Position numbers and translations under genes: made by a program. A stretch of DNA of 64,000 bases from a phage. The stretch lies in assembly GCA_011915565.1 (NCBI GenBank), contig GCA_011915565.1_3920.1; one strand, written 5' to 3'. Under the pieces are notes generated by a model that ran no database searches, was not told where the DNA came from, and saw only the letters and a program-made list of their open reading frames with translations. Positions 13,961-48,452 of the stretch are shown in pieces; the stretch's first letter is position 1; every line of letters starts with the position of its first letter.

Positions 13961-14566
<606 letters not shown>

Positions 14567-14624
14567 TTAGTTGATTGTTAAGTTGTTTGTAAAGAACCCT
14601 CAACAGAAGACTCTTTAGAAACTT

Positions 14625-14880
14625 GGTAGATTTTTAATGTGGCTACTACCATCCACCCTTACCAGACCAGACCAAGCCAAGCCCAACACTACCGAACCGG
14701 ACACGACCAGACCTTATTAAAAGACCCTGTTTAAAGACCTTTTAAAAAGGTAAGTCTCATTTTAATGTAGCTGAGACTAACTACCCACACCAAACCATAG
14801 CATACATCGCATTACCGGACAGAACCATACTTTACCAGACATCACTTAAAAACCCTCTTAAAAGACTCTTAAGTGATGCT
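14625..14880 (-). repeat. second copy of the composite repeat block (diverged)
   Basis: About 75% identical to 13115-13275, including ggtag...ctacc hairpin where the first copy has ggcag...ctgcc; ccttattaaaagaccctgtttaaagacc and acttaaaaaccctcttaaaagactcttaagtgatg recur. Confidence 0.7.
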
Positions 14881-14908
14881 GGTGAGTACCTGTTGGTTTA
14901 TGCTGCTC

Positions 14909-14936
14909 AGTATACTCACCAAATTTTCTATGTCAA
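14909..14936 (-). promoter_or_regulatory. candidate sigma70-type promoter reading into the repeat block and cassette
   Basis: Minus strand TTGACA-N16-TATACT. Confidence 0.4.
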
Positions 14937-15093
14937 CAACTTTTTATAAAAAAGTTCTGATAGCTATATGTGTCACGAAACAAAAGATTGTAAACAAGAC
15001 ACCCATTGCAAAAGATGTGTCCAAAAGCTTACTTGCAACGTATGACAATACAAAGACAACCAGTATAAACAGAATGACTGTACTGAACATAGT

Positions 15094-16197
15094 TTATTCA
15101 TAATCCCTAATAACTAGCCCTACAGGGAACTGTAAAGACCCCTTACGAGTCATCTTCTGGAACTGAACCGTTAAAGGTTTCCCGATAAACTCTTCAGGAT
15201 GTTCAGCAAGATACTGTTTCTTCTCGTGTGTAGTTTTCCATGAGACATCTACAAAGACGTTAGGAAGAGTCTCTACAACGAACTTGCCATGACCACGTTT
15301 ATCGGTCTTTACACCAGTCACTTTAAATTCTTCAGTGTACATCTTCTTGTGCTTAATCAAGAAGTATGAACGGTGACCACACTCGTAGAAAGATTCTTCA
15401 GAGATTGAACGGTACATTGCACCTTCAAACTTAGCTTCAACCCACTTATCATGGGCTTCATCAAACTCTTCCCAAGAATTTACACGACGAGACTTAACAG
15501 GAACAACTTTACAGCCGTCTCTGAAGTCATTCAATGGTGAAGTCTCAATAATATCTCTACGCTCAGGCCACGTTTTAGTACTGTCACAGATATCATACCA
15601 GTAGAACTTAAGTAAGTGTCTGTCAGGATTGTCTTCATTTTTAATCATAGAGACAATATCTTCTAAGTCCCACCCATGAGCATAAATCTCACCATCAAAT
15701 TCATCAACATCTTTATGGAGCCTCAACATTGCCATAATGTCAGGTATTAGCTCAGTAGGAATTTTATAAATAGTGTTCTCACGAGAATATGCTGTAAATA
15801 CACTGCCAATACTCAAGTGTCTTGAAATTCTACAACGGACACCGTCAAGTTTTGGTTGAGCATCAGCAGGGAATTTCAAATACTTTGCATGACTTACCTT
15901 CGCAGCATCGTGAGCAAGCTGTACACCTACCTTCTCAGTATTCTGTGCAGACTCTTTTGTGTAAGCATACCCTTTACGGTCAACTTGCTTTTTATACTTA
16001 GCAGCAACTTCAAAGAGAGCTTGCTGTTCAGCATTACGCTCATTCTTTTTACCGATGTTTTTAGGTTCTGCTGTATACTCTTCAAACATCATCTTGCCAT
16101 TTTCTTTACCATAGGTTGTGATAACTTTGTCACCTACAGCAACACATGACCAGACGTTGAAGGAACCATCTTTATTTTGTTTGTACAGAATTGTCAT
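15094..16197 (-). CDS. ATP-dependent DNA ligase
   Basis: KLDGVRC adenylation motif (KxDG); start set at internal ATG (MTILYKQ) with GAGG RBS; track ORF extends to 16233. Confidence 0.8.
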   Translation of the reverse strand: MTILYKQNKDGSFNVWSCVAVGDKVITTYGKENGKMMFEEYTAEPKNIGKKNERNAEQQALFEVAAKYKKQVDRKGYAYTKESAQNTEKVGVQLAHDAAKVSHAKYLKFPADAQPKLDGVRCRISRHLSIGSVFTAYSRENTIYKIPTELIPDIMAMLRLHKDVDEFDGEIYAHGWDLEDIVSMIKNEDNPDRHLLKFYWYDICDSTKTWPERRDIIETSPLNDFRDGCKVVPVKSRRVNSWEEFDEAHDKWVEAKFEGAMYRSISEESFYECGHRSYFLIKHKKMYTEEFKVTGVKTDKRGHGKFVVETLPNVFVDVSWKTTHEKKQYLAEHPEEFIGKPLTVQFQKMTRKGSLQFPVGLVIRDYE

Positions 16198-16402
16198 TTT
16201 TAACCTCTGAGTGATACCAAGTGTTGCAAGCATTACATGCGTAAAGCTCTAAGTCGTTTTTATCTGGTTTATGGAAACAGTTTGACCCACAACGACACCG
16301 GAATAACTTACCATCAACACGAAGAATGAATGTTTCAAGCTCACCCTCTTCTGTAAGGACGGCGTTATTATATTTGTTATCTTTATCCATTTGCACCCTC
16401 AC
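16172..16402 (-). CDS. small zinc-ribbon protein
   Basis: CRCGSNC...CNACN cysteine pairs. Confidence 0.45.
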   Translation of the reverse strand: MRVQMDKDNKYNNAVLTEEGELETFILRVDGKLFRCRCGSNCFHKPDKNDLELYACNACNTWYHSEVKNDNSVQTK

Positions 16403-16546
16403 CTGTGTCAGATTTCATATAAGACCTGTCACTAAACCTTTTAATGAAATGTACAACGCATTTCGGTGTATCTTTTGCATCTTTGATGTGCAACCTTTCG
16501 AAACTACGCACTGTGAAGGTTGCACCTGTCATTGTTTGTTTAGATT

Positions 16547-16804
16547 TCATTTTCTCTTACCACCAATTTCTACGTCAATAACTTGAACATCGCCAGCAAC
16601 ATCAAACTTATGAATGATGCTTTCCACAGTGTAAGTCCAACCCTCAATGCGAACCAACTCACCTTCTCGTGGGACGATTGGATTACGTTGAGCTACGGTT
16701 GTAGTGGAGTGAACAACATCATAACAATAGATGTAGTTTACTAAGACTTCCATCGAGAAAACCTCACTCAATAACCGTAGTGTGTGATTGTCCATTTTTG
16801 TCAT
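16547..16804 (-). CDS. hypothetical protein
   Basis: 85 aa ORF in the operon. Confidence 0.4.
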   Translation of the reverse strand: MTKMDNHTLRLLSEVFSMEVLVNYIYCYDVVHSTTTVAQRNPIVPREGELVRIEGWTYTVESIIHKFDVAGDVQVIDVEIGGKRK

Positions 16805-17021
16805 AGTTGTAAGATGTTGTTGTTTGAGAATTTGGACATCTTACAACAACAATATCTCTGCTTATAGCATCACCATTGAGTTTGTAGATTTTGCAGTCTT
16901 GCATCTCTGGAGGGAGGCTGTAAGAAGCATCTTTGTTTTCATAAGATGGGTTGCAGCCAGCCAGAAAAATTACTCCAAGTGCAACCATTGCTTTCACACA
17001 ACTCTTAACCTTATTGTTCAC
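16764..17021 (-). CDS. putative lipoprotein
   Basis: N-terminus MNNKVKSCVKAMVALGVIFLAGC: signal peptide with lipobox (LAGC). Confidence 0.5.
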   Translation of the reverse strand: MNNKVKSCVKAMVALGVIFLAGCNPSYENKDASYSLPPEMQDCKIYKLNGDAISRDIVVVRCPNSQTTTSYNYDKNGQSHTTVIE

Positions 17022-17153
17022 GATAGTCTACCTCTCTGTATGTTTTTAAATAGTGAGTGATGAGTTCTGGTAATTCACTACGTTTAACGTTTGAACGAAG
17101 AAGTGTCCAATCAAAACCTTTACCAACCCTTCCCCAGAGACTGTACATTTTCT

Positions 17154-17387
17154 TCATATCAACTCCAGAATATCAATACGTTCACCCTTAAGAACACCTG
17201 TACGGTCTCTTGCAATCTTACCGTCAACGATAAGGATATGCGCGACCTTTAAAGCCTCACGATTAAAACCTTTTACGAACTTGCTAGGCATGACTACAAT
17301 GGACATCTCCTGAATTAACTCTGGAGTGTAGCAGTTATCATGAAGTTGCTGAATAACATCTGCAAGTGTCATTTTTGATGTCTCCAA
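17154..17387 (-). CDS. hypothetical protein
   Basis: 77 aa ORF, co-oriented. Confidence 0.4.
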   Translation of the reverse strand: METSKMTLADVIQQLHDNCYTPELIQEMSIVVMPSKFVKGFNREALKVAHILIVDGKIARDRTGVLKGERIDILELI

Positions 17388-17578
17388 TACTCAATGTCAA
17401 TAAGTTCTTGTGCAATGCTTTTCAGATTACCTTTCAAGAAAACCTTCTCAGAACCTGAAAGAGATGAATTGTCAATTAGCCTGTTCATTCTCTCAAACAA
17501 CTTCTGCTTACGGTTCTTGATAGTTTCCTTTGAAGCACCTTTCATCATCGCTGCATGGGTTCTTCCACGATGGCTCAT
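17369..17578 (-). CDS. hypothetical basic protein
   Basis: 69 aa ORF overlapping neighbour start. Confidence 0.4.
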   Translation of the reverse strand: MSHRGRTHAAMMKGASKETIKNRKQKLFERMNRLIDNSSLSGSEKVFLKGNLKSIAQELIDIEYWRHQK

Positions 17579-17629
17579 AAGCCCTCCTATATAAGATATA
17601 GTATAAGGTACTCTTCCATGAGCACCTTG

Positions 17630-18181
17630 TCAACTTAGTTTTGCAAACTCTCCGTGGAGTTTTACAGCAGCTTCACAGTAAGCTTTATGGGCTTCTTCAG
17701 GTGTGTCAAACATACCAAGATGATAGTTTTTACCTTGTAAACGTATCATTGCTCGAAACCTTTTACTTATCTTCTGTACACCTTTTGGCAACCCAGATGG
17801 GGACTCTCTTGACCGATTGCAAGAGTTTTGTGAAGCTGTACAAACCCTTAAATTCAAGTACCTATTGTCCCAACCGTCCCCATTCTTATGGTCAACCTGT
17901 AAGGTTTTATCAGGTAGATATCCATCCATATACAAGATAACTAAACGATTTGCTTGGTAACCCCTTCCATCAATCAGCAACTGAACTGACTTGTGTCCAT
18001 CAGTATTTGTTCTGTAGTTTCCAGCCCTCTTACCTCCAAATCTAGAGTTAAAGTTTGCATTACCTTCTCTAAACTTCCAAGTAAAGACCCCTGTTTCGGG
18101 GTCGTAGTCCAATAGCTCCTTAAGACGAATTTCTGTAATCATTTCAACACCATCAATGTACTTCCAACCAGCTCTTACCAA
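17630..18181 (-). mobile_element. HNH homing endonuclease with AP2-type DNA-binding domain
   Basis: VDHKNGDGWDNRYLNLRVCTASQN (HNH) plus GVQKISKRFRAMIRLQGKNYHLGMFDTPEEAHKAY (AP2-like); directly downstream of the polymerase gene; alternative start at 18142. Confidence 0.75.
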
Positions 18182-20852
18182 CCTTGCCTGTGCCAGTTAC
18201 AAGCGTCTCACTCTTCAAACCTAAATTCTTAGATGCCTGACCATACATCCAGTCAGTTATGGCTTTAACTTCTTGAGTCATACTTTCTGGGCATTCCCAA
18301 CTGTTTTCATCGTGGTATGCCAGCAAAAGCCTAGCACCAATTGCTGGTTTTCGTCCATTTAATTTTGTCAACCCTTCTTCACATGCTCTTCTACAAGCAA
18401 GGTTAATTGCCTCATTTTGAATCTGAGCCTCCGAACCCATGAGCAAATAATTCAATAACTTATGTGGAGATTTACACCACAACCAAGCTCCAGCAACCTT
18501 TACAAAACCCCCTTTAGAGATTGCAGCAGTCTTACCAAACACCTCTTCAAGTGCCTTCTTAGTTGCTTTGTAGTCAGCTTCCAAGTCATCAAGCAGCTTC
18601 TTAATTTTAGGCAAACGAATAAAGTAAGTCTGTTTAGTTAATGCACCTTCCTGAGTAGTGGCTGCCTTAATAGTTTTAGCAAACTTTTCATCACCTGCAC
18701 CGAACAGTAGTGCATAGATACCATTCTTAGCTTTCTTACGACCTTTGCTAATCTCATGAAGAAGATTCTCATCCTGAGTAGCTCGACAAGTCAAGATATC
18801 CTGCTCATCATTCAAGCTAAAGTAAATACTGTTCAGTGTATGTGCATCAGTCCCTGAATAGACAACGTACAGGTCATTCTCAGAGTCATAACGTAGGTAC
18901 TTATCAATCTCTGGGTTGAGGTACTCATCAAAGTGTTTGCAGTAATAGCGTCCATCTTCTTGACGAATAAACTCAATCTCTTCTTTACCTTGCGTCACCG
19001 CTTTGGTGAAGTCTTTGTCACCCATAAAGTTACAAAGAAGAACTAGCTGGGCTGAGTTCATGTCTACAGAGACAACGTTAGTACCTTCTTCACAAATCCA
19101 CACTGCCCTCATTGGTTCCCCATAGACAGCAGCACCAGACGGTACGTTTACAATACCATATTGTGTCATACGTCCAGTTGAAGTACCAAACACCATTGCA
19201 CCAGCACTAAGGCGACCATCAGGACGAATCTGGTTCAACCAACCTTTTTCATCATCCTTTGAGTTCTCAATAGTTCTGCGTCTGTGCATCAAAGTATAGT
19301 ACTTCGCAATCTTCTGTCCAAGCTCACCTTCAATCGTATCATAAGATGATTCAGTAAGTTTTGGTGAAGTACGGATTAAGCAAGGCTCAAGCAAATCTGT
19401 GTATTTCTTCACAGACCAGTTATGCTCGATGTACTGTACACCTTCATGTTCAGCATAACTCAAACCACACCGCTCAACCATTTCCTGCCACTTAGGATGC
19501 TTTGTAATCATCTTTTTATTGTCTTTGAAACGACAAACTTTGACAGGGCGACCATCTGAGTCTTTCTTGTAATTCCAGTCATCTGGAATCCAACCAACTG
19601 ATTTCAAGTAGTCTTTAACAACTGCTACCTGAGTCATACGAGAAACTTCAAACTCAATTGGTGTATATGGTGCATCAATCAATCCTGTGTAGCGACTTGA
19701 CTCCAGTTCAAAGTGGTTAACAACATGGCTGTTATAGTACTTCACAGTTTTAACAGTTTTTACTGGCTTCCAGTCTTTGCATTTCTTACCAATCTTTGCA
19801 TTCAACTCGTTGCAAATTGCACGAGCATCCTTCATTGCTACAAAGCCTTCCTTGTACTCTTCACCAGTTACAGAGTTGGTTGGTGTATAGCAATTTCTCT
19901 TTTCAATGTTAAAAATCTTTGTAGTTGGCTTACCAAATGGCTTGATTTCGTATGTCTGCATCTCACCGTTACGTACCTGCTGACGATACTTTGTTTTAGG
20001 GTACTTGGTAATTCTCTTCAGTCCATCTGCATGACCGAATGTTTCAACATACTCATTCCAAGCTTTTGCAAACTCTTCTCCAGTGACTTTACCTTTGGTC
20101 TTAATAGTTGGAGGTAGATGTGGTTCAACCTCTGAAGCAAGTTCATTAGTCAATTTGTCAAGCTCCTTTACATGGAACTCCATAAGCTCCTTATCAGCTT
20201 TCCAACCATTGATAGCTTGTTGGCTCATCCAGAAAGATGTCTCTTTAGCTCGCATGTAAGTTTCATAAGTGTCTATACCACACTTCTTAAGCTTGAGATA
20301 CTCGTTATCAAGTGCCCGTTTAGTTTTGGCGTTAATACGGATATCTTCTACAACACGAGTGAAGATTTCTGCATTCCACACACCCCAATGTTCAATCTCT
20401 GGTTTACGAACACCAACACGAGCACCCCATGCAGCCAAGCCATGAGCACCTTTATAGCCTTTTGGAGTTGGCCTATCCATCCACTGAACACGAGACTGAA
20501 TAAGAGAATCCTGAAAGAAATTACTCCACGGCTTACATTTTGGATTATCAAAGTTCCATAAATCCGGTGCAATGTGATTGAAAACCCACCAGTCATAACC
20601 GAGGCCATTATGGATACAAAGTCGTTTTGCCTTTAACGCAAACTCAACACCTTCACGTAAACCACCCTTAATGTACTTAGTGTACTTGTGACCGAGGATA
20701 GGCTCATCTGTAAAGACCCATACAGGTGGCTCTTCATCGTCAGATTTATAGTCTGCAAAAGCCATTACGTGAACTTTAGTGAACTCAAGGAGTAAACCAT
20801 CAGTTTCTGTATCACCAACTAAATGTAAGTTTTTAAAATCTACGTTTTCCAT
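18153..20852 (-). CDS. DNA polymerase, family A, with 3'-5' exonuclease
   Basis: Exo motif HLVGDTETDG near N-terminus; polymerase motifs including ...LLLAYHDENSWECPE; start at MENVDF with GAGGGAG RBS (track ORF to 20882). Confidence 0.9.
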   Translation of the reverse strand: MENVDFKNLHLVGDTETDGLLLEFTKVHVMAFADYKSDDEEPPVWVFTDEPILGHKYTKYIKGGLREGVEFALKAKRLCIHNGLGYDWWVFNHIAPDLWNFDNPKCKPWSNFFQDSLIQSRVQWMDRPTPKGYKGAHGLAAWGARVGVRKPEIEHWGVWNAEIFTRVVEDIRINAKTKRALDNEYLKLKKCGIDTYETYMRAKETSFWMSQQAINGWKADKELMEFHVKELDKLTNELASEVEPHLPPTIKTKGKVTGEEFAKAWNEYVETFGHADGLKRITKYPKTKYRQQVRNGEMQTYEIKPFGKPTTKIFNIEKRNCYTPTNSVTGEEYKEGFVAMKDARAICNELNAKIGKKCKDWKPVKTVKTVKYYNSHVVNHFELESSRYTGLIDAPYTPIEFEVSRMTQVAVVKDYLKSVGWIPDDWNYKKDSDGRPVKVCRFKDNKKMITKHPKWQEMVERCGLSYAEHEGVQYIEHNWSVKKYTDLLEPCLIRTSPKLTESSYDTIEGELGQKIAKYYTLMHRRRTIENSKDDEKGWLNQIRPDGRLSAGAMVFGTSTGRMTQYGIVNVPSGAAVYGEPMRAVWICEEGTNVVSVDMNSAQLVLLCNFMGDKDFTKAVTQGKEEIEFIRQEDGRYYCKHFDEYLNPEIDKYLRYDSENDLYVVYSGTDAHTLNSIYFSLNDEQDILTCRATQDENLLHEISKGRKKAKNGIYALLFGAGDEKFAKTIKAATTQEGALTKQTYFIRLPKIKKLLDDLEADYKATKKALEEVFGKTAAISKGGFVKVAGAWLWCKSPHKLLNYLLMGSEAQIQNEAINLACRRACEEGLTKLNGRKPAIGARLLLAYHDENSWECPESMTQEVKAITDWMYGQASKNLGLKSETLVTGTGKVGKSWLEVH

Positions 20853-20912
20853 TTTTACTCCCTCTAAAATCATTAACCTCATACATTACTGCAAAAAATT
20901 ATAAAAAGCAAG

Positions 20913-20941
20913 TTGACAATGTACTTGACAAGGTGTTAATC
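20913..20941 (+). promoter_or_regulatory. candidate early promoter in divergent intergenic region
   Basis: TTGACA-N17-TTAATC inside an AT-rich 230 bp gap between divergent operons. Confidence 0.35.
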
Positions 20942-21109
20942 TTTGCGAAGTGGGTTTTTACTTAAAAGGTTACTTAACAGTTTAACTATACAGATACTTT
21001 AAAACTCTTAAAAGATTATTTAATAGCTTTTAAAAAGCTTTAAAGTATAACGTATAGAATACGTTAAGATAAAAGATTAAAACTTAATAGTTACTTAAAA
21101 GAGGCTTAC

Positions 21110-44981: not shown

Positions 44982-46091
44982 ATGACTACTAAAACTAAAG
45001 CACAGATTGACGCAGAAATTTACAAACTGGTTAAAGAAGGTAAGCTGACCAAAACAGCTATTGCACAGAAATTTAACACTTCAACCCGTTCAGTTGGTCG
45101 TGCTGTAGAGCGTCATGAAGCAACCCTAAAAGGGAATAAAAAGGCAACTTCTACACCAGCTACGAAGACTTTGAAACAAGTTGCTAAGACTTTTAAAAAG
45201 AAAGCTGGCAAACCAGTTGAAAAGGTCGTTAAAGAGACTGTACAGAAAGCTCCAGTAAATAAACTGCACGAAGCTATGCAGAAAGATGACAAAATTGAGT
45301 ACATGATTACTGGTGACTCTGTAATTATGACTTATGGTTCAGAATCTGAAATTGTTGAGTCTACTCATCCAAACTATCAAGAGATTGTAGTTCATGTTGT
45401 GAAAGGTGAGTTCAAGAAAGCATTTGAACTGATGAACATCCGTAAGTCTATCGAAAACTTCACTCAGGGTGCTATTACAATCAAAGGTGACAAGCTATTC
45501 TACGGTGCTGTTGAGATGCGTTCTACTCTGGTTGACCGTATTCTCCACATGATGAAGACTGGTGATAAAGGTTTTGAACGACTTGTAATGTTCTTCGAAA
45601 AACTGATGGAAAACCCATCTAAAGATTCTGTAGAACAACTTTGGGGATTTGTATCTCACCTTGATGTTGAAATTGATGAAGAAGGCTACATCATTGGTTG
45701 GAAGAAAGTCTCTACTCGTGAAGGCAAGCTGGTTGACTCTCACACCTACAAAGTGCCTAATGATTTGGGTAACATTGTAGAAATGCCACGTTGGATGGTT
45801 GATAATAACCGTAACGTAACTTGCTCTCAAGGTCTTCATGTTGGTGCTTGGGATTATGTTCGTTGCTTCTCAGGTGATACAATCCTGAAGGTTCGCGTAC
45901 ATCCACGAGATGTTGTATCTGTTCCAACTGATTACAACGATATGAAGATGCGTTCCTCTCGTTATGAAGTTGCAGCAATCGTTGATAATCAACGTAAAGT
46001 GCTGGAAGCATGGGACGGTAAGACTGAAGCTTTGCATGTCATCGTTGGCACTGCTGGTGAACTCATCTCTCAACGTAAACGTGAAATCTAA
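44982..46091 (+). CDS. rIIB: rIIB-like protein
   Basis: 369 aa ORF downstream of the rIIA-like gene; synteny-based. Confidence 0.4.
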   Translation: MTTKTKAQIDAEIYKLVKEGKLTKTAIAQKFNTSTRSVGRAVERHEATLKGNKKATSTPATKTLKQVAKTFKKKAGKPVEKVVKETVQKAPVNKLHEAMQKDDKIEYMITGDSVIMTYGSESEIVESTHPNYQEIVVHVVKGEFKKAFELMNIRKSIENFTQGAITIKGDKLFYGAVEMRSTLVDRILHMMKTGDKGFERLVMFFEKLMENPSKDSVEQLWGFVSHLDVEIDEEGYIIGWKKVSTREGKLVDSHTYKVPNDLGNIVEMPRWMVDNNRNVTCSQGLHVGAWDYVRCFSGDTILKVRVHPRDVVSVPTDYNDMKMRSSRYEVAAIVDNQRKVLEAWDGKTEALHVIVGTAGELISQRKREI

Positions 46092-46191: not shown

Positions 46192-46740
46192 ATGAAGAAA
46201 TTGATTCTAGGTTTGTGCTTAATGTTTACAGCACACTTATCTTATGCAGTTGACTGCCCAGAGCTATCAATTAGCCAAAAAGTGAACATGTTAAAAGCTT
46301 ACCAGTATGGTGAGAATAACATGGGTAAAGGTTGGGGTATCACTCTAGCAGCTATAGCCTTACAAGAGTCAGAGTTAGGTCTGAAGGTAGAAAATAAAAA
46401 GACCCATGACTATGGTATCTTCCAGAATCACTTGAAGACTGTTGTAAAGCGTAACAAAATTAGTCCTAATGTTGCTAAAAAGAAACTCTTAAAAGATTTT
46501 GACTATGCTGCGAAGGAAACGCACAAAGAACTTGAGTTTTGGACAAAGGTGCATGGTCAGCCAAAGTCAAAGAAGACTTTACAAAAAGTTTTAGCATCAT
46601 ATAATGCTGGGTATTCGTACAGAATCCCTAAAGCTAAGAAGTATTCTCAAGATGTCTATAACAACATGAAAGTTATTGCTCAATGTGAATTTGCAACAAA
46701 CATTTCTAAGGTAAACCATGAAAAAATTAAAAAAGTCTGA
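46192..46740 (+). CDS. secreted lytic transglycosylase-like (SLT domain) protein
   Basis: Signal peptide MKKLILGLCLMFTAHLSYA; SLT-like motifs ALQESELG, YGIFQ, SYNAGYSY. Confidence 0.55.
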   Translation: MKKLILGLCLMFTAHLSYAVDCPELSISQKVNMLKAYQYGENNMGKGWGITLAAIALQESELGLKVENKKTHDYGIFQNHLKTVVKRNKISPNVAKKKLLKDFDYAAKETHKELEFWTKVHGQPKSKKTLQKVLASYNAGYSYRIPKAKKYSQDVYNNMKVIAQCEFATNISKVNHEKIKKV

Positions 46741-47941: not shown

Positions 47942-48289
47942 ATGACATTTAAAGAGTTCTGTCAAGCTACTTTCATAGTTGTTTTCTTAGTTGGGGCAGG
48001 TGTCTGGGGAGGATACTCTTACAGAGACTACCAAGTTGCTGAAACTGAGCTAAACAATGAGAAGCTGATAAGTGTTGCTAAAGATGCTTATCAGGAAGGA
48101 TTAGCTACACTGAGCACCAATTACAAAAATGATTTGAAAGATGTGCTTGCTAAGAATAAGCACACAAAAGAGGTACTAACGTATGAAAAAACTAAGCCAG
48201 AGTTTTATAATGTTTGTGTTACTGATAATTATGTCAGGGTGTTCAACGAACAAAGTGAACAGTACATTCAAAAACTCCCAAGTAAGTGA
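47942..48289 (+). CDS. putative i-spanin (Rz-like)
   Basis: N-terminal TM helix (ATFIVVFLVGAGVWGGY) then coiled-coil-like periplasmic region; overlaps a lipoprotein ORF in another frame. Confidence 0.45.
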   Translation: MTFKEFCQATFIVVFLVGAGVWGGYSYRDYQVAETELNNEKLISVAKDAYQEGLATLSTNYKNDLKDVLAKNKHTKEVLTYEKTKPEFYNVCVTDNYVRVFNEQSEQYIQKLPSK

Positions 48290-48452
48290 GGGTGACAAGT
48301 ACACTCAAGAAGAATCACGGTATATCATCAAAGGTAACACAGGCAGTGATGTAGCAGCAGCACTTGAGTTCTACCGTGACGGCTTTTACCAGTGTACAAT
48401 TAAAGCTAATAACCTTATTGACATGATTTTATTAGGAAATAAACAGCAATGA
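48183..48452 (+). CDS. putative o-spanin (Rz1-like lipoprotein)
   Basis: Signal peptide with lipobox (LLIIMSGC); starts inside the 3' end of the TM/coiled-coil ORF. Confidence 0.4.
   Translation: MKKLSQSFIMFVLLIIMSGCSTNKVNSTFKNSQVSEGDKYTQEESRYIIKGNTGSDVAAALEFYRDGFYQCTIKANNLIDMILLGNKQQ

Follow-up and report, generated by a model that had tools for sequence, protein, structure and literature searches.

The window analysed here is a stretch of 64,000 nucleotides (nt) of phage DNA (contig GCA_011915565.1_3920.1 of NCBI GenBank assembly GCA_011915565.1), and on its minus strand lies the small gene that is the subject of this work, an open reading frame (ORF) of 85 amino acids (aa) that opens with GTG and occupies exactly 16764..17021 in the ORF listing of the window. 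Its translation begins MNNKVKSCVKAMVALGVIFLAGC and continues NPSYENKD; the complete 85-aa sequence is MNNKVKSCVKAMVALGVIFLAGCNPSYENKDASYSLPPEMQDCKIYKLNGDAISRDIVVVRCPNSQTTTSYNYDKNGQSHTTVIE. A sequence-only reading of this DNA had placed an 85-aa ORF with the lipobox LAGC between a ligase and a polymerase gene, and both the ORF and its flanking genes proved to be as claimed. Its sequence and the conservation set out below show that the ORF is genuine and encodes a small lipoprotein of exported type, which belongs to the widespread phage family phrog_902. The gene and the parts of its product are laid out as follows.

16764..17021 (including the stop codon), minus strand: prolipoprotein coding sequence, 85 aa, member of phrog_902 and, in precomputed tables, of PF16225 (DUF4884).
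16956..17021, minus strand: predicted signal peptide, residues 1-22, with K4, K6 and K10 in the n-region and the h-region AMVALGVIFLAG, from sequence reading and hydropathy.
16953..16964, minus strand: lipobox L20-A21-G22-C23, in which the invariant Cys23 is the predicted lipid-attachment site and first mature residue, followed by Asn.
16767..16955, minus strand: mature domain, 63 residues, about 7.1 kDa, isoelectric point about 5.2, predicted from alignments and a model to be a tether of about 12 residues and a small beta-sheet domain.
16893..16895, minus strand: codon of Cys43, invariant, putative disulfide partner of Cys62.
16836..16838, minus strand: codon of Cys62, invariant, the next residue being the near-invariant Pro63.
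17031..17036, minus strand: GAGAGG, resembling a Shine-Dalgarno sequence, 9 nt before the GTG start, read from the sequence.

The N-terminus is built as that of a lipoprotein, with a charged n-region, a hydrophobic h-region (residues 11-22; the Kyte-Doolittle mean over nine residues peaks at 2.96, at residues 12-20) and a conserved lipobox that fits [LVI][ASTVI][GAS]C and ends at residue 23, inside the usual range of about 15-35 residues from the start. Upstream of the coding sequence the minus strand reads ACAGAGAGGTAGACTATC-GTG. Alternative in-frame starts are present at GTG 16997 and ATG 16988, and all three starts retain the hydrophobic leader and the lipobox. In most relatives the protein begins with MWK where the window has its second GTG, so that the product is 78 aa long, and a cluster of 340 sequences shares the long N-terminus found in the window; owing to such differences in start site, the lipoprotein is annotated in relatives at 75, 78, 85 or 124 aa. 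Since a lipobox-type pattern alone also arises by chance in this DNA (6 start/ORF combinations in 5 reading frames of the window's six-frame ORF set, most of them non-coding), conservation was needed to establish the gene. The signal peptides of close relatives have drifted in sequence (MWKAVIALGVIFLAGC, MLKLLTLVMTILLVGC), whereas lipobox and mature part are retained, which is the pattern expected for a real lipoprotein. The strict lipobox pattern was present in most collected members (193 of 205). Among the 12 members that departed from it, 10 had a Cys after a hydrophobic stretch, preceded by F, M, Y or S, and the remaining two (P0002 and P0003) had a standard lipobox lying past the scanned region, owing to miscalled N-terminal extensions.

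The phrog_902 profile was matched with an E-value (E) of 1.7e-17 by the whole protein and of 5.5e-11 by the mature part alone. By tblastn the protein was present in 586 phage records; identity was 60% or higher in no fewer than 198 of these. A profile built from 62 sequences matched 1150 clusters (50% identity) at a threshold of E<=0.001, of which 620 also passed E<=1e-10, and every match was a small protein. In 67 clusters obtained by a word search the longest contigs were all <=352 kb, a size that fits phage genomes, not chromosomes. Members reachable from the window protein included those of Felixounavirus, Certrevirus (Vequintavirinae), Stephanstirmvirinae and Vibrio Demerecviridae (~114 kb, T5-like), as well as Acinetobacter Saclayvirus, Aeromonas Straboviridae (T4-like) and the jumbo genera Asteriusvirus and Eneladusvirus. 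The hosts of these phages are all two-membraned (Escherichia, Salmonella, Vibrio, Acinetobacter, Aeromonas, Erwinia and Klebsiella). A reading of the ORF as non-functional, either a chance frame with a lipobox-like string or an annotation artefact, could appeal to the lipobox-like patterns that arise fortuitously in several non-coding frames of the window and to the differing annotated starts of relatives. We give it practically no weight, as it is already refuted by conservation: more than 1000 clusters are matched by profile, with invariant Cys and conserved motifs, close homologues recur in the phage records counted above, and the lipobox stays while signal peptides drift.

The label PF16225:DUF4884 was attached, in precomputed tables, to all homologues returned except P0012 and P0025. 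A local hmmscan against Pfam-A with the protein and 13 homologues (E<=10) returned neither PF16225 nor any other meaningful family, so the label rests on the precomputed tables. NCBIfam gave only matches at the level of the signal peptide, below cut-off, PADLOC gave none, and a profile search of PDB sequences likewise matched at the level of the signal peptide only. DUF4884 proteins have been recorded, with no function given, in the T1-like coliphage Henu8 (PMC12210894) and in Bacteroides thetaiotaomicron, where BT_3183 was detected as a fucosylated glycoprotein (PMC8931616). The Henu8 annotation could not be tied to the phrog_902 subfamily studied here: T1 and pSf-1 carry no family member, and tblastn with P0067 returned no T1-like record. 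We found no functional study of the phrog_902/DUF4884 family in the literature. The family is one that is already catalogued and uncharacterised. Set against it, the window protein has the same length, lipobox, three-Cys pattern and motifs, and nothing sets it apart; it is an ordinary member, and the sequence evidence would not surprise a specialist.

We then examined the mature domain, using three family alignments of 12, 62 and 150 sequences (A1, A2 and A3). The lipid Cys, Cys43 and Cys62 were invariant in all three, and Pro37, Pro63, Tyr46 and Lys75 were near-invariant. Two motifs recur, LPxE(L/M)xDCK(I/V)Y and VVRCPNSxT. Exactly three Cys were found in 169 of 193 members; the second follows the lipid Cys by 17-22 residues, the third follows the second by 17-20 residues in 90% of members, and at least 23 residues follow the last Cys. 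The mature part is hydrophilic, with 4 Pro in 63 residues and no second hydrophobic segment (maximum 19-residue hydropathy of 0.35). An AlphaFold2 model of the mature part from 150 sequences had four to five short strands at a mean predicted local distance difference test (pLDDT) score of 64.8 (66-73 over the first 40 residues), and the full-length protein scored 56.5. In mature numbering, the two conserved internal Cys sit just before the strand at 22-27 and just after the strand at 34-39, that is, at the ends of a hairpin. Because both invariant Cys bound the hairpin ends in the model, a Cys43-Cys62 disulfide probably clamps this beta hairpin. A Foldseek search of the PDB with this low-confidence model gave no match below E 1.6, and the missing fold match is weak evidence because the confidence of the model is low. 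In BFVD the matches at E<=0.03 (ranks 1-4) were all unannotated phage proteins, two of them named lipoprotein, from Yersinia phage fHe-Yen9-03, Vibrio phage JSF10 and Aeromonas phages Aeh1 and phiAS5. Variant forms were noted among proteins P0028, P0072 and P0006: some members carry a helical-looking C-terminal extension ending ...KLT(P/D)EERKALGL, and P0006 joins the opening nine codons of the 48-aa ORF described below to the lipoprotein.

The residue after the lipid Cys bears on where the protein would reside. Under the enterobacterial +2 rule, Asp in this position predicts retention in the inner membrane. The window protein has Asn (CNPS), from which the rule predicts the outer membrane. 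This position is variable: among 193 members it held Asp in 54 (28%), Glu in 29, Thr in 26, Ser in 24 and Asn in 23. The homologues of Asteriusvirus, Certrevirus, Stephanstirmvirinae and Eneladusvirus, all with enterobacterial hosts, read CDAS, CDAY or CDGS, and these, by the rule, would stay in the inner membrane. If the function is common to the family, the membrane that holds the anchor may therefore be irrelevant, and a periplasmic target would fit better than the periplasmic face of one outer-membrane protein, since the +2 residue varies across the family.

The gene lies in a block of co-directional replication genes, the neighbouring features of which are as follows.

15094..16233, minus strand: ATP-dependent DNA ligase, flanking gene.
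17011..17157, minus strand: upstream ORF of 48 aa, phrog_2381, function unknown, from the ORF listing and a profile match.
18153..20882, minus strand: family A DNA polymerase, flanking gene.

Between the two flanking genes and the lipoprotein gene lie an HNH endonuclease gene (17630..18181) and four small ORFs that have no known function. The last 11 nt of the 48-aa ORF, stop codon included, overlap the start of the lipoprotein gene, which suggests translational coupling; the 48-aa ORF is not kept beside the lipoprotein family in other phage groups. A scan for promoters and terminators gave results at chance level and was uninformative on timing, and expression with early or middle genes is plausible given the co-directional replication block. 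In a megablast comparison with phage records, positions 14500-21000 of the window gave 266 matches, mostly Felixounavirus at 90-96% identity and mostly phages of Escherichia, Salmonella, Shigella and Citrobacter. From these matches and from the classification of a close relative, Salmonella phage GEC_vB_BS (Ounavirinae, Felixounavirus), the window comes from a Felix O1-like lytic myovirus.

To describe the surroundings of the family more widely, 14 distinct contexts were read, comprising the window, its close relative and 12 distant loci. In all 14 the family member was one of a series of small, functionally unassigned genes, all read in the same direction and situated near genes for nucleic-acid enzymes; the genes nearby included those for ligase, primase, RNA ligase, polynucleotide kinase, thymidylate synthase and nucleotidyltransferase, and tRNA genes. 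None of the 14 had a tail fibre, receptor-binding or lysis gene adjoining the family member. An all-against-all comparison of neighbours within 3 kb at nine loci found no neighbour common to different phage groups, and for this reason we regard the family gene, on sequence comparison, as one that moves and works alone. A positional analogy to T4 genes was considered and dropped, as the variable region in which the T4-like Aeromonas phage carries the gene has no annotation. A 192-kb metagenomic phage contig (L009, L010; 6294..6620) has, directly after the family member, a weakly related second copy (hmmsearch E 1e-8), which is, from its sequence, a tandem duplication of the lipoprotein.

Two further features of the replication module were observed. 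The HNH endonuclease (17630..18181, minus strand) carries an AP2 domain (HNH_3, E 6e-12), and its gene overlaps the 3' end of the polymerase gene by 29 nt; relatives gain or lack this endonuclease and have split polymerase or ligase genes annotated, which suggests homing-endonuclease traffic within the module. A 76-aa ORF (16172..16402, minus strand) with CxC...CxxC Cys pairs belongs to phrog_5768, of unknown function, overlaps the start of the ligase gene, and is annotated in some relatives as a second 'DNA ligase' coding sequence.

Distribution and context together point to a stand-alone accessory periplasmic function, expressed with the replication genes. Lipoproteins mature through the Sec/Lgt/LspA/Lnt pathway. 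On the mechanism that we propose, the precursor would be exported by Sec, lipidated on Cys23 by Lgt and cleaved before Cys23 by LspA, and the mature lipoprotein would be moved by Lol to the outer membrane. The mature part, a tether of about 12 residues and a four- to five-stranded beta domain, would acquire its Cys43-Cys62 disulfide from DsbA in the periplasm. It would then bind something exposed to the periplasm that Gram-negative envelopes, or else incoming phage tails, have in common, and so protect or reprogramme the envelope of the infected cell. We propose a receptor-independent role in the envelope because the gene stands alone, occurs across many hosts and receptor types, and has an early or replication-associated position. 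The likeliest phenotype would be that secondary phages are excluded after adsorption, independently of the receptor, or that the cell is protected against their wall-degrading tail tips. Such exclusion or envelope protection is our best single guess, held tentatively at a probability of roughly 0.3.

Known systems offer a likeness to this proposal in logic only, that of an early, small, exported, stand-alone protein directed against parts of an incoming phage. T4 Spackle is a periplasmic inhibitor of the tail lysozyme of a superinfecting phage, and is not a lipoprotein; TP-J34 Ltp is a lipoprotein that binds the tape measure protein, is helical, and acts in Gram-positive hosts. By analogy, this logic would fit the receptor-independent distribution of the family, and it is unlike the receptor jamming of T5 Llp and Cor. 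No match was found to phrog_1586, to which T4 Spackle belongs; besides phrog_902, the only family listed at E<=1 was phrog_15147 (E 0.094), which is not Spackle. Several points weigh against exclusion or envelope protection. No characterised homologue supports any function; early expression is assumed from gene position; exclusion is one of several roles that fit a periplasmic lipoprotein; and the varying +2 residue means that the membranes may differ over the family, which is awkward for one membrane-embedded target.

The sequence-only reading had favoured receptor blocking of the kind carried out by T5 Llp and by Cor, in which an outer-membrane lipoprotein binds the periplasmic face of the phage's own receptor, blocks superinfection and protects released progeny. 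The window protein shares with Llp and with the Cor proteins of T1, N15 and phi80 a small size, a short tether, periplasmic Cys, a predicted outer-membrane site (here from Asn+2) and a lytic phage as its source. Its LPxExxDCKIY weakly resembles PKDIKCEAYY of Llp and PERTCTAIY of Cor, and phrog_902 was the second-best match of T1 Cor (E 0.0017, over residues 1-36, about half of them signal peptide). T5 Llp (a 100% match to NC_005859) and T1 Cor were both recovered, in phrog_1119, "Cor superinfection exclusion protein", a different family from phrog_902, and the window protein had no match to phrog_1119 at E<=1. A full-length hhalign comparison of the family with Llp gave a probability of 93% over 32 columns, a match that we rejected, as about half of these columns, and nearly all of the conserved positions, are signal peptide and lipobox. 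When 24 Cor/Llp relatives were compared with the family after both had been cut up to and including the lipid Cys, the probability was 0.7% (E 0.08, 12 columns), that is, no detectable homology of the mature parts. The Cys topology also differs: the internal Cys of the family lie 17-20 residues apart in mid-domain as a hairpin clamp, whereas in Llp, which binds the periplasmic face of the FhuA plug, a Cys11-Cys58 disulfide ties the termini together (PMC9586334). Exclusion genes of Drexlerviridae are described as sitting with receptor-binding protein genes downstream of gpJ (PMC8594841), and T1 cor lies in the tail gene region, whereas the family never adjoined receptor-binding genes in the 14 contexts and is found here between ligase and polymerase. 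Felix O1 and its relatives are reported to target lipopolysaccharide (LPS) and no protein receptor (PMC8594841), so there would be no TonB-dependent transporter to jam. Phages whose receptors and hosts are unrelated moreover have the family in common, and this speaks against a receptor-specific partner, since a blocker should co-vary with the receptor; the many family members with Asp+2 are predicted to lie in the inner membrane in enterobacteria. With mature homology, Cys topology, linkage to receptor genes, receptor type and receptor range all unlike those of Llp and Cor, we consider receptor blocking very improbable for this protein, and the earlier suggestion is not supported in this specific form. 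In the genome of Shigella phage pSf-1 (L012), we observed a separate small lipoprotein ORF (45529..45759, minus strand; lipobox LTGC) about 1 kb downstream of the tail tip gene, with one membrane-protein gene in between, a position as described for T1-like exclusion lipoproteins; apart from its signal peptide, it is unrelated to the phrog_902 family.

A lysis function, as an o-spanin (Rz1-like), a unimolecular spanin or a lysis-timing regulator such as a lipid-anchored antiholin, has the appeal that small outer-membrane lipoproteins of phages are most often o-spanins, and o-spanins likewise carry periplasmic Cys. In GEC_vB_BS, the opposite strand carries a gene annotated as holin at a distance of about 5.3 kb. 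Compared with a lambda Rz1-type o-spanin, the window protein is alike in size, lipid anchor, predicted outer-membrane site and periplasmic Cys. It is unlike that type in having no adjacent or overlapping i-spanin (neither neighbour of the gene encodes a transmembrane, i-spanin-like product), in not being proline-rich and in its predicted folded beta domain. The window has, moreover, a separate, overlapped spanin pair elsewhere:

47942..48289, plus strand: Rz-like i-spanin, phrog_1152, E 1.7e-41.
48183..48452, plus strand: probable o-spanin, 89 aa, lipobox MSGC, phrog_4180 (unknown function), starting inside the 3' part of the i-spanin gene.

With its own spanin pair elsewhere, no membrane-protein neighbour and, at the low maximum hydropathy noted above, no C-terminal membrane segment as in unimolecular spanins of the T1 gp11 type, identity as an o-spanin or unimolecular spanin was rejected. 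The antiholin variant is compatible with the sequence; none of the 14 contexts had the gene in contact with a lysis gene, and we judge a lysis function as a whole improbable. A further possibility is that the lipoprotein serves host takeover or counter-defence, binding, inhibiting or hijacking a periplasmic or membrane component of the host to aid the primary infection; candidate targets would include sensors (of a defence system, exposed to the periplasm, or of envelope stress), a protease or nuclease, and a machine of envelope biogenesis. Such a role would suit the position of the gene, which stands alone as an accessory in the plastic early regions of many large lytic phages; its retention across hosts fits a conserved host target, and some contigs have it first or second after a divergent junction, a common place for early genes. 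The searches tell against it: PADLOC matched no known defence or anti-defence family, the NCBIfam matches were those to the signal peptide, and neither sequence nor fold searches pointed to a target. We regard takeover or counter-defence as possible but unlikely.

Near the spanin genes, a 182-aa protein (46192..46740, plus strand) with a signal-peptide-like N-terminus, MKKLILGLCLMFTAHLSYA, is encoded about 1.2 kb upstream. It belongs to phrog_600, of unknown function, and has a weak Pfam match to the SLT transglycosylase domain (E 9e-4, below cut-off); this SLT-like protein could be a secreted endolysin.

Among the genes of lytic phages, those for small exported proteins are poorly understood, and Llp, Cor, Spackle and Imm showed that phages control the envelope and exclude competitors through such proteins. 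For a stand-alone domain of about 60 residues, phrog_902 is unusually widespread and conserved, and it is kept in Felix O1-like phages that serve in diagnostics and biocontrol. If a phenotype were defined, hundreds of phage genomes would gain an annotation together, and the design of phage cocktails could be affected if the lipoprotein excludes other phages; the breadth of the family makes it a reasonable target for simple expression and plating. A bolder idea, which we hold to be unlikely as it stands, is that the phrog_902/DUF4884 lipoproteins are a pan-phage, receptor-independent envelope effector that binds one universal periplasm-exposed target. If this were true, the target could be a machine that builds or spans the envelope, or else some conserved piece of incoming tails, and the infected cell would be closed to further phage entry, or its envelope-based defence disarmed. 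The family would then represent a new and very widespread class of exclusion or takeover proteins, carried by more than 1000 clusters and unrelated to Llp/Cor, Spackle, Imm and Sim.

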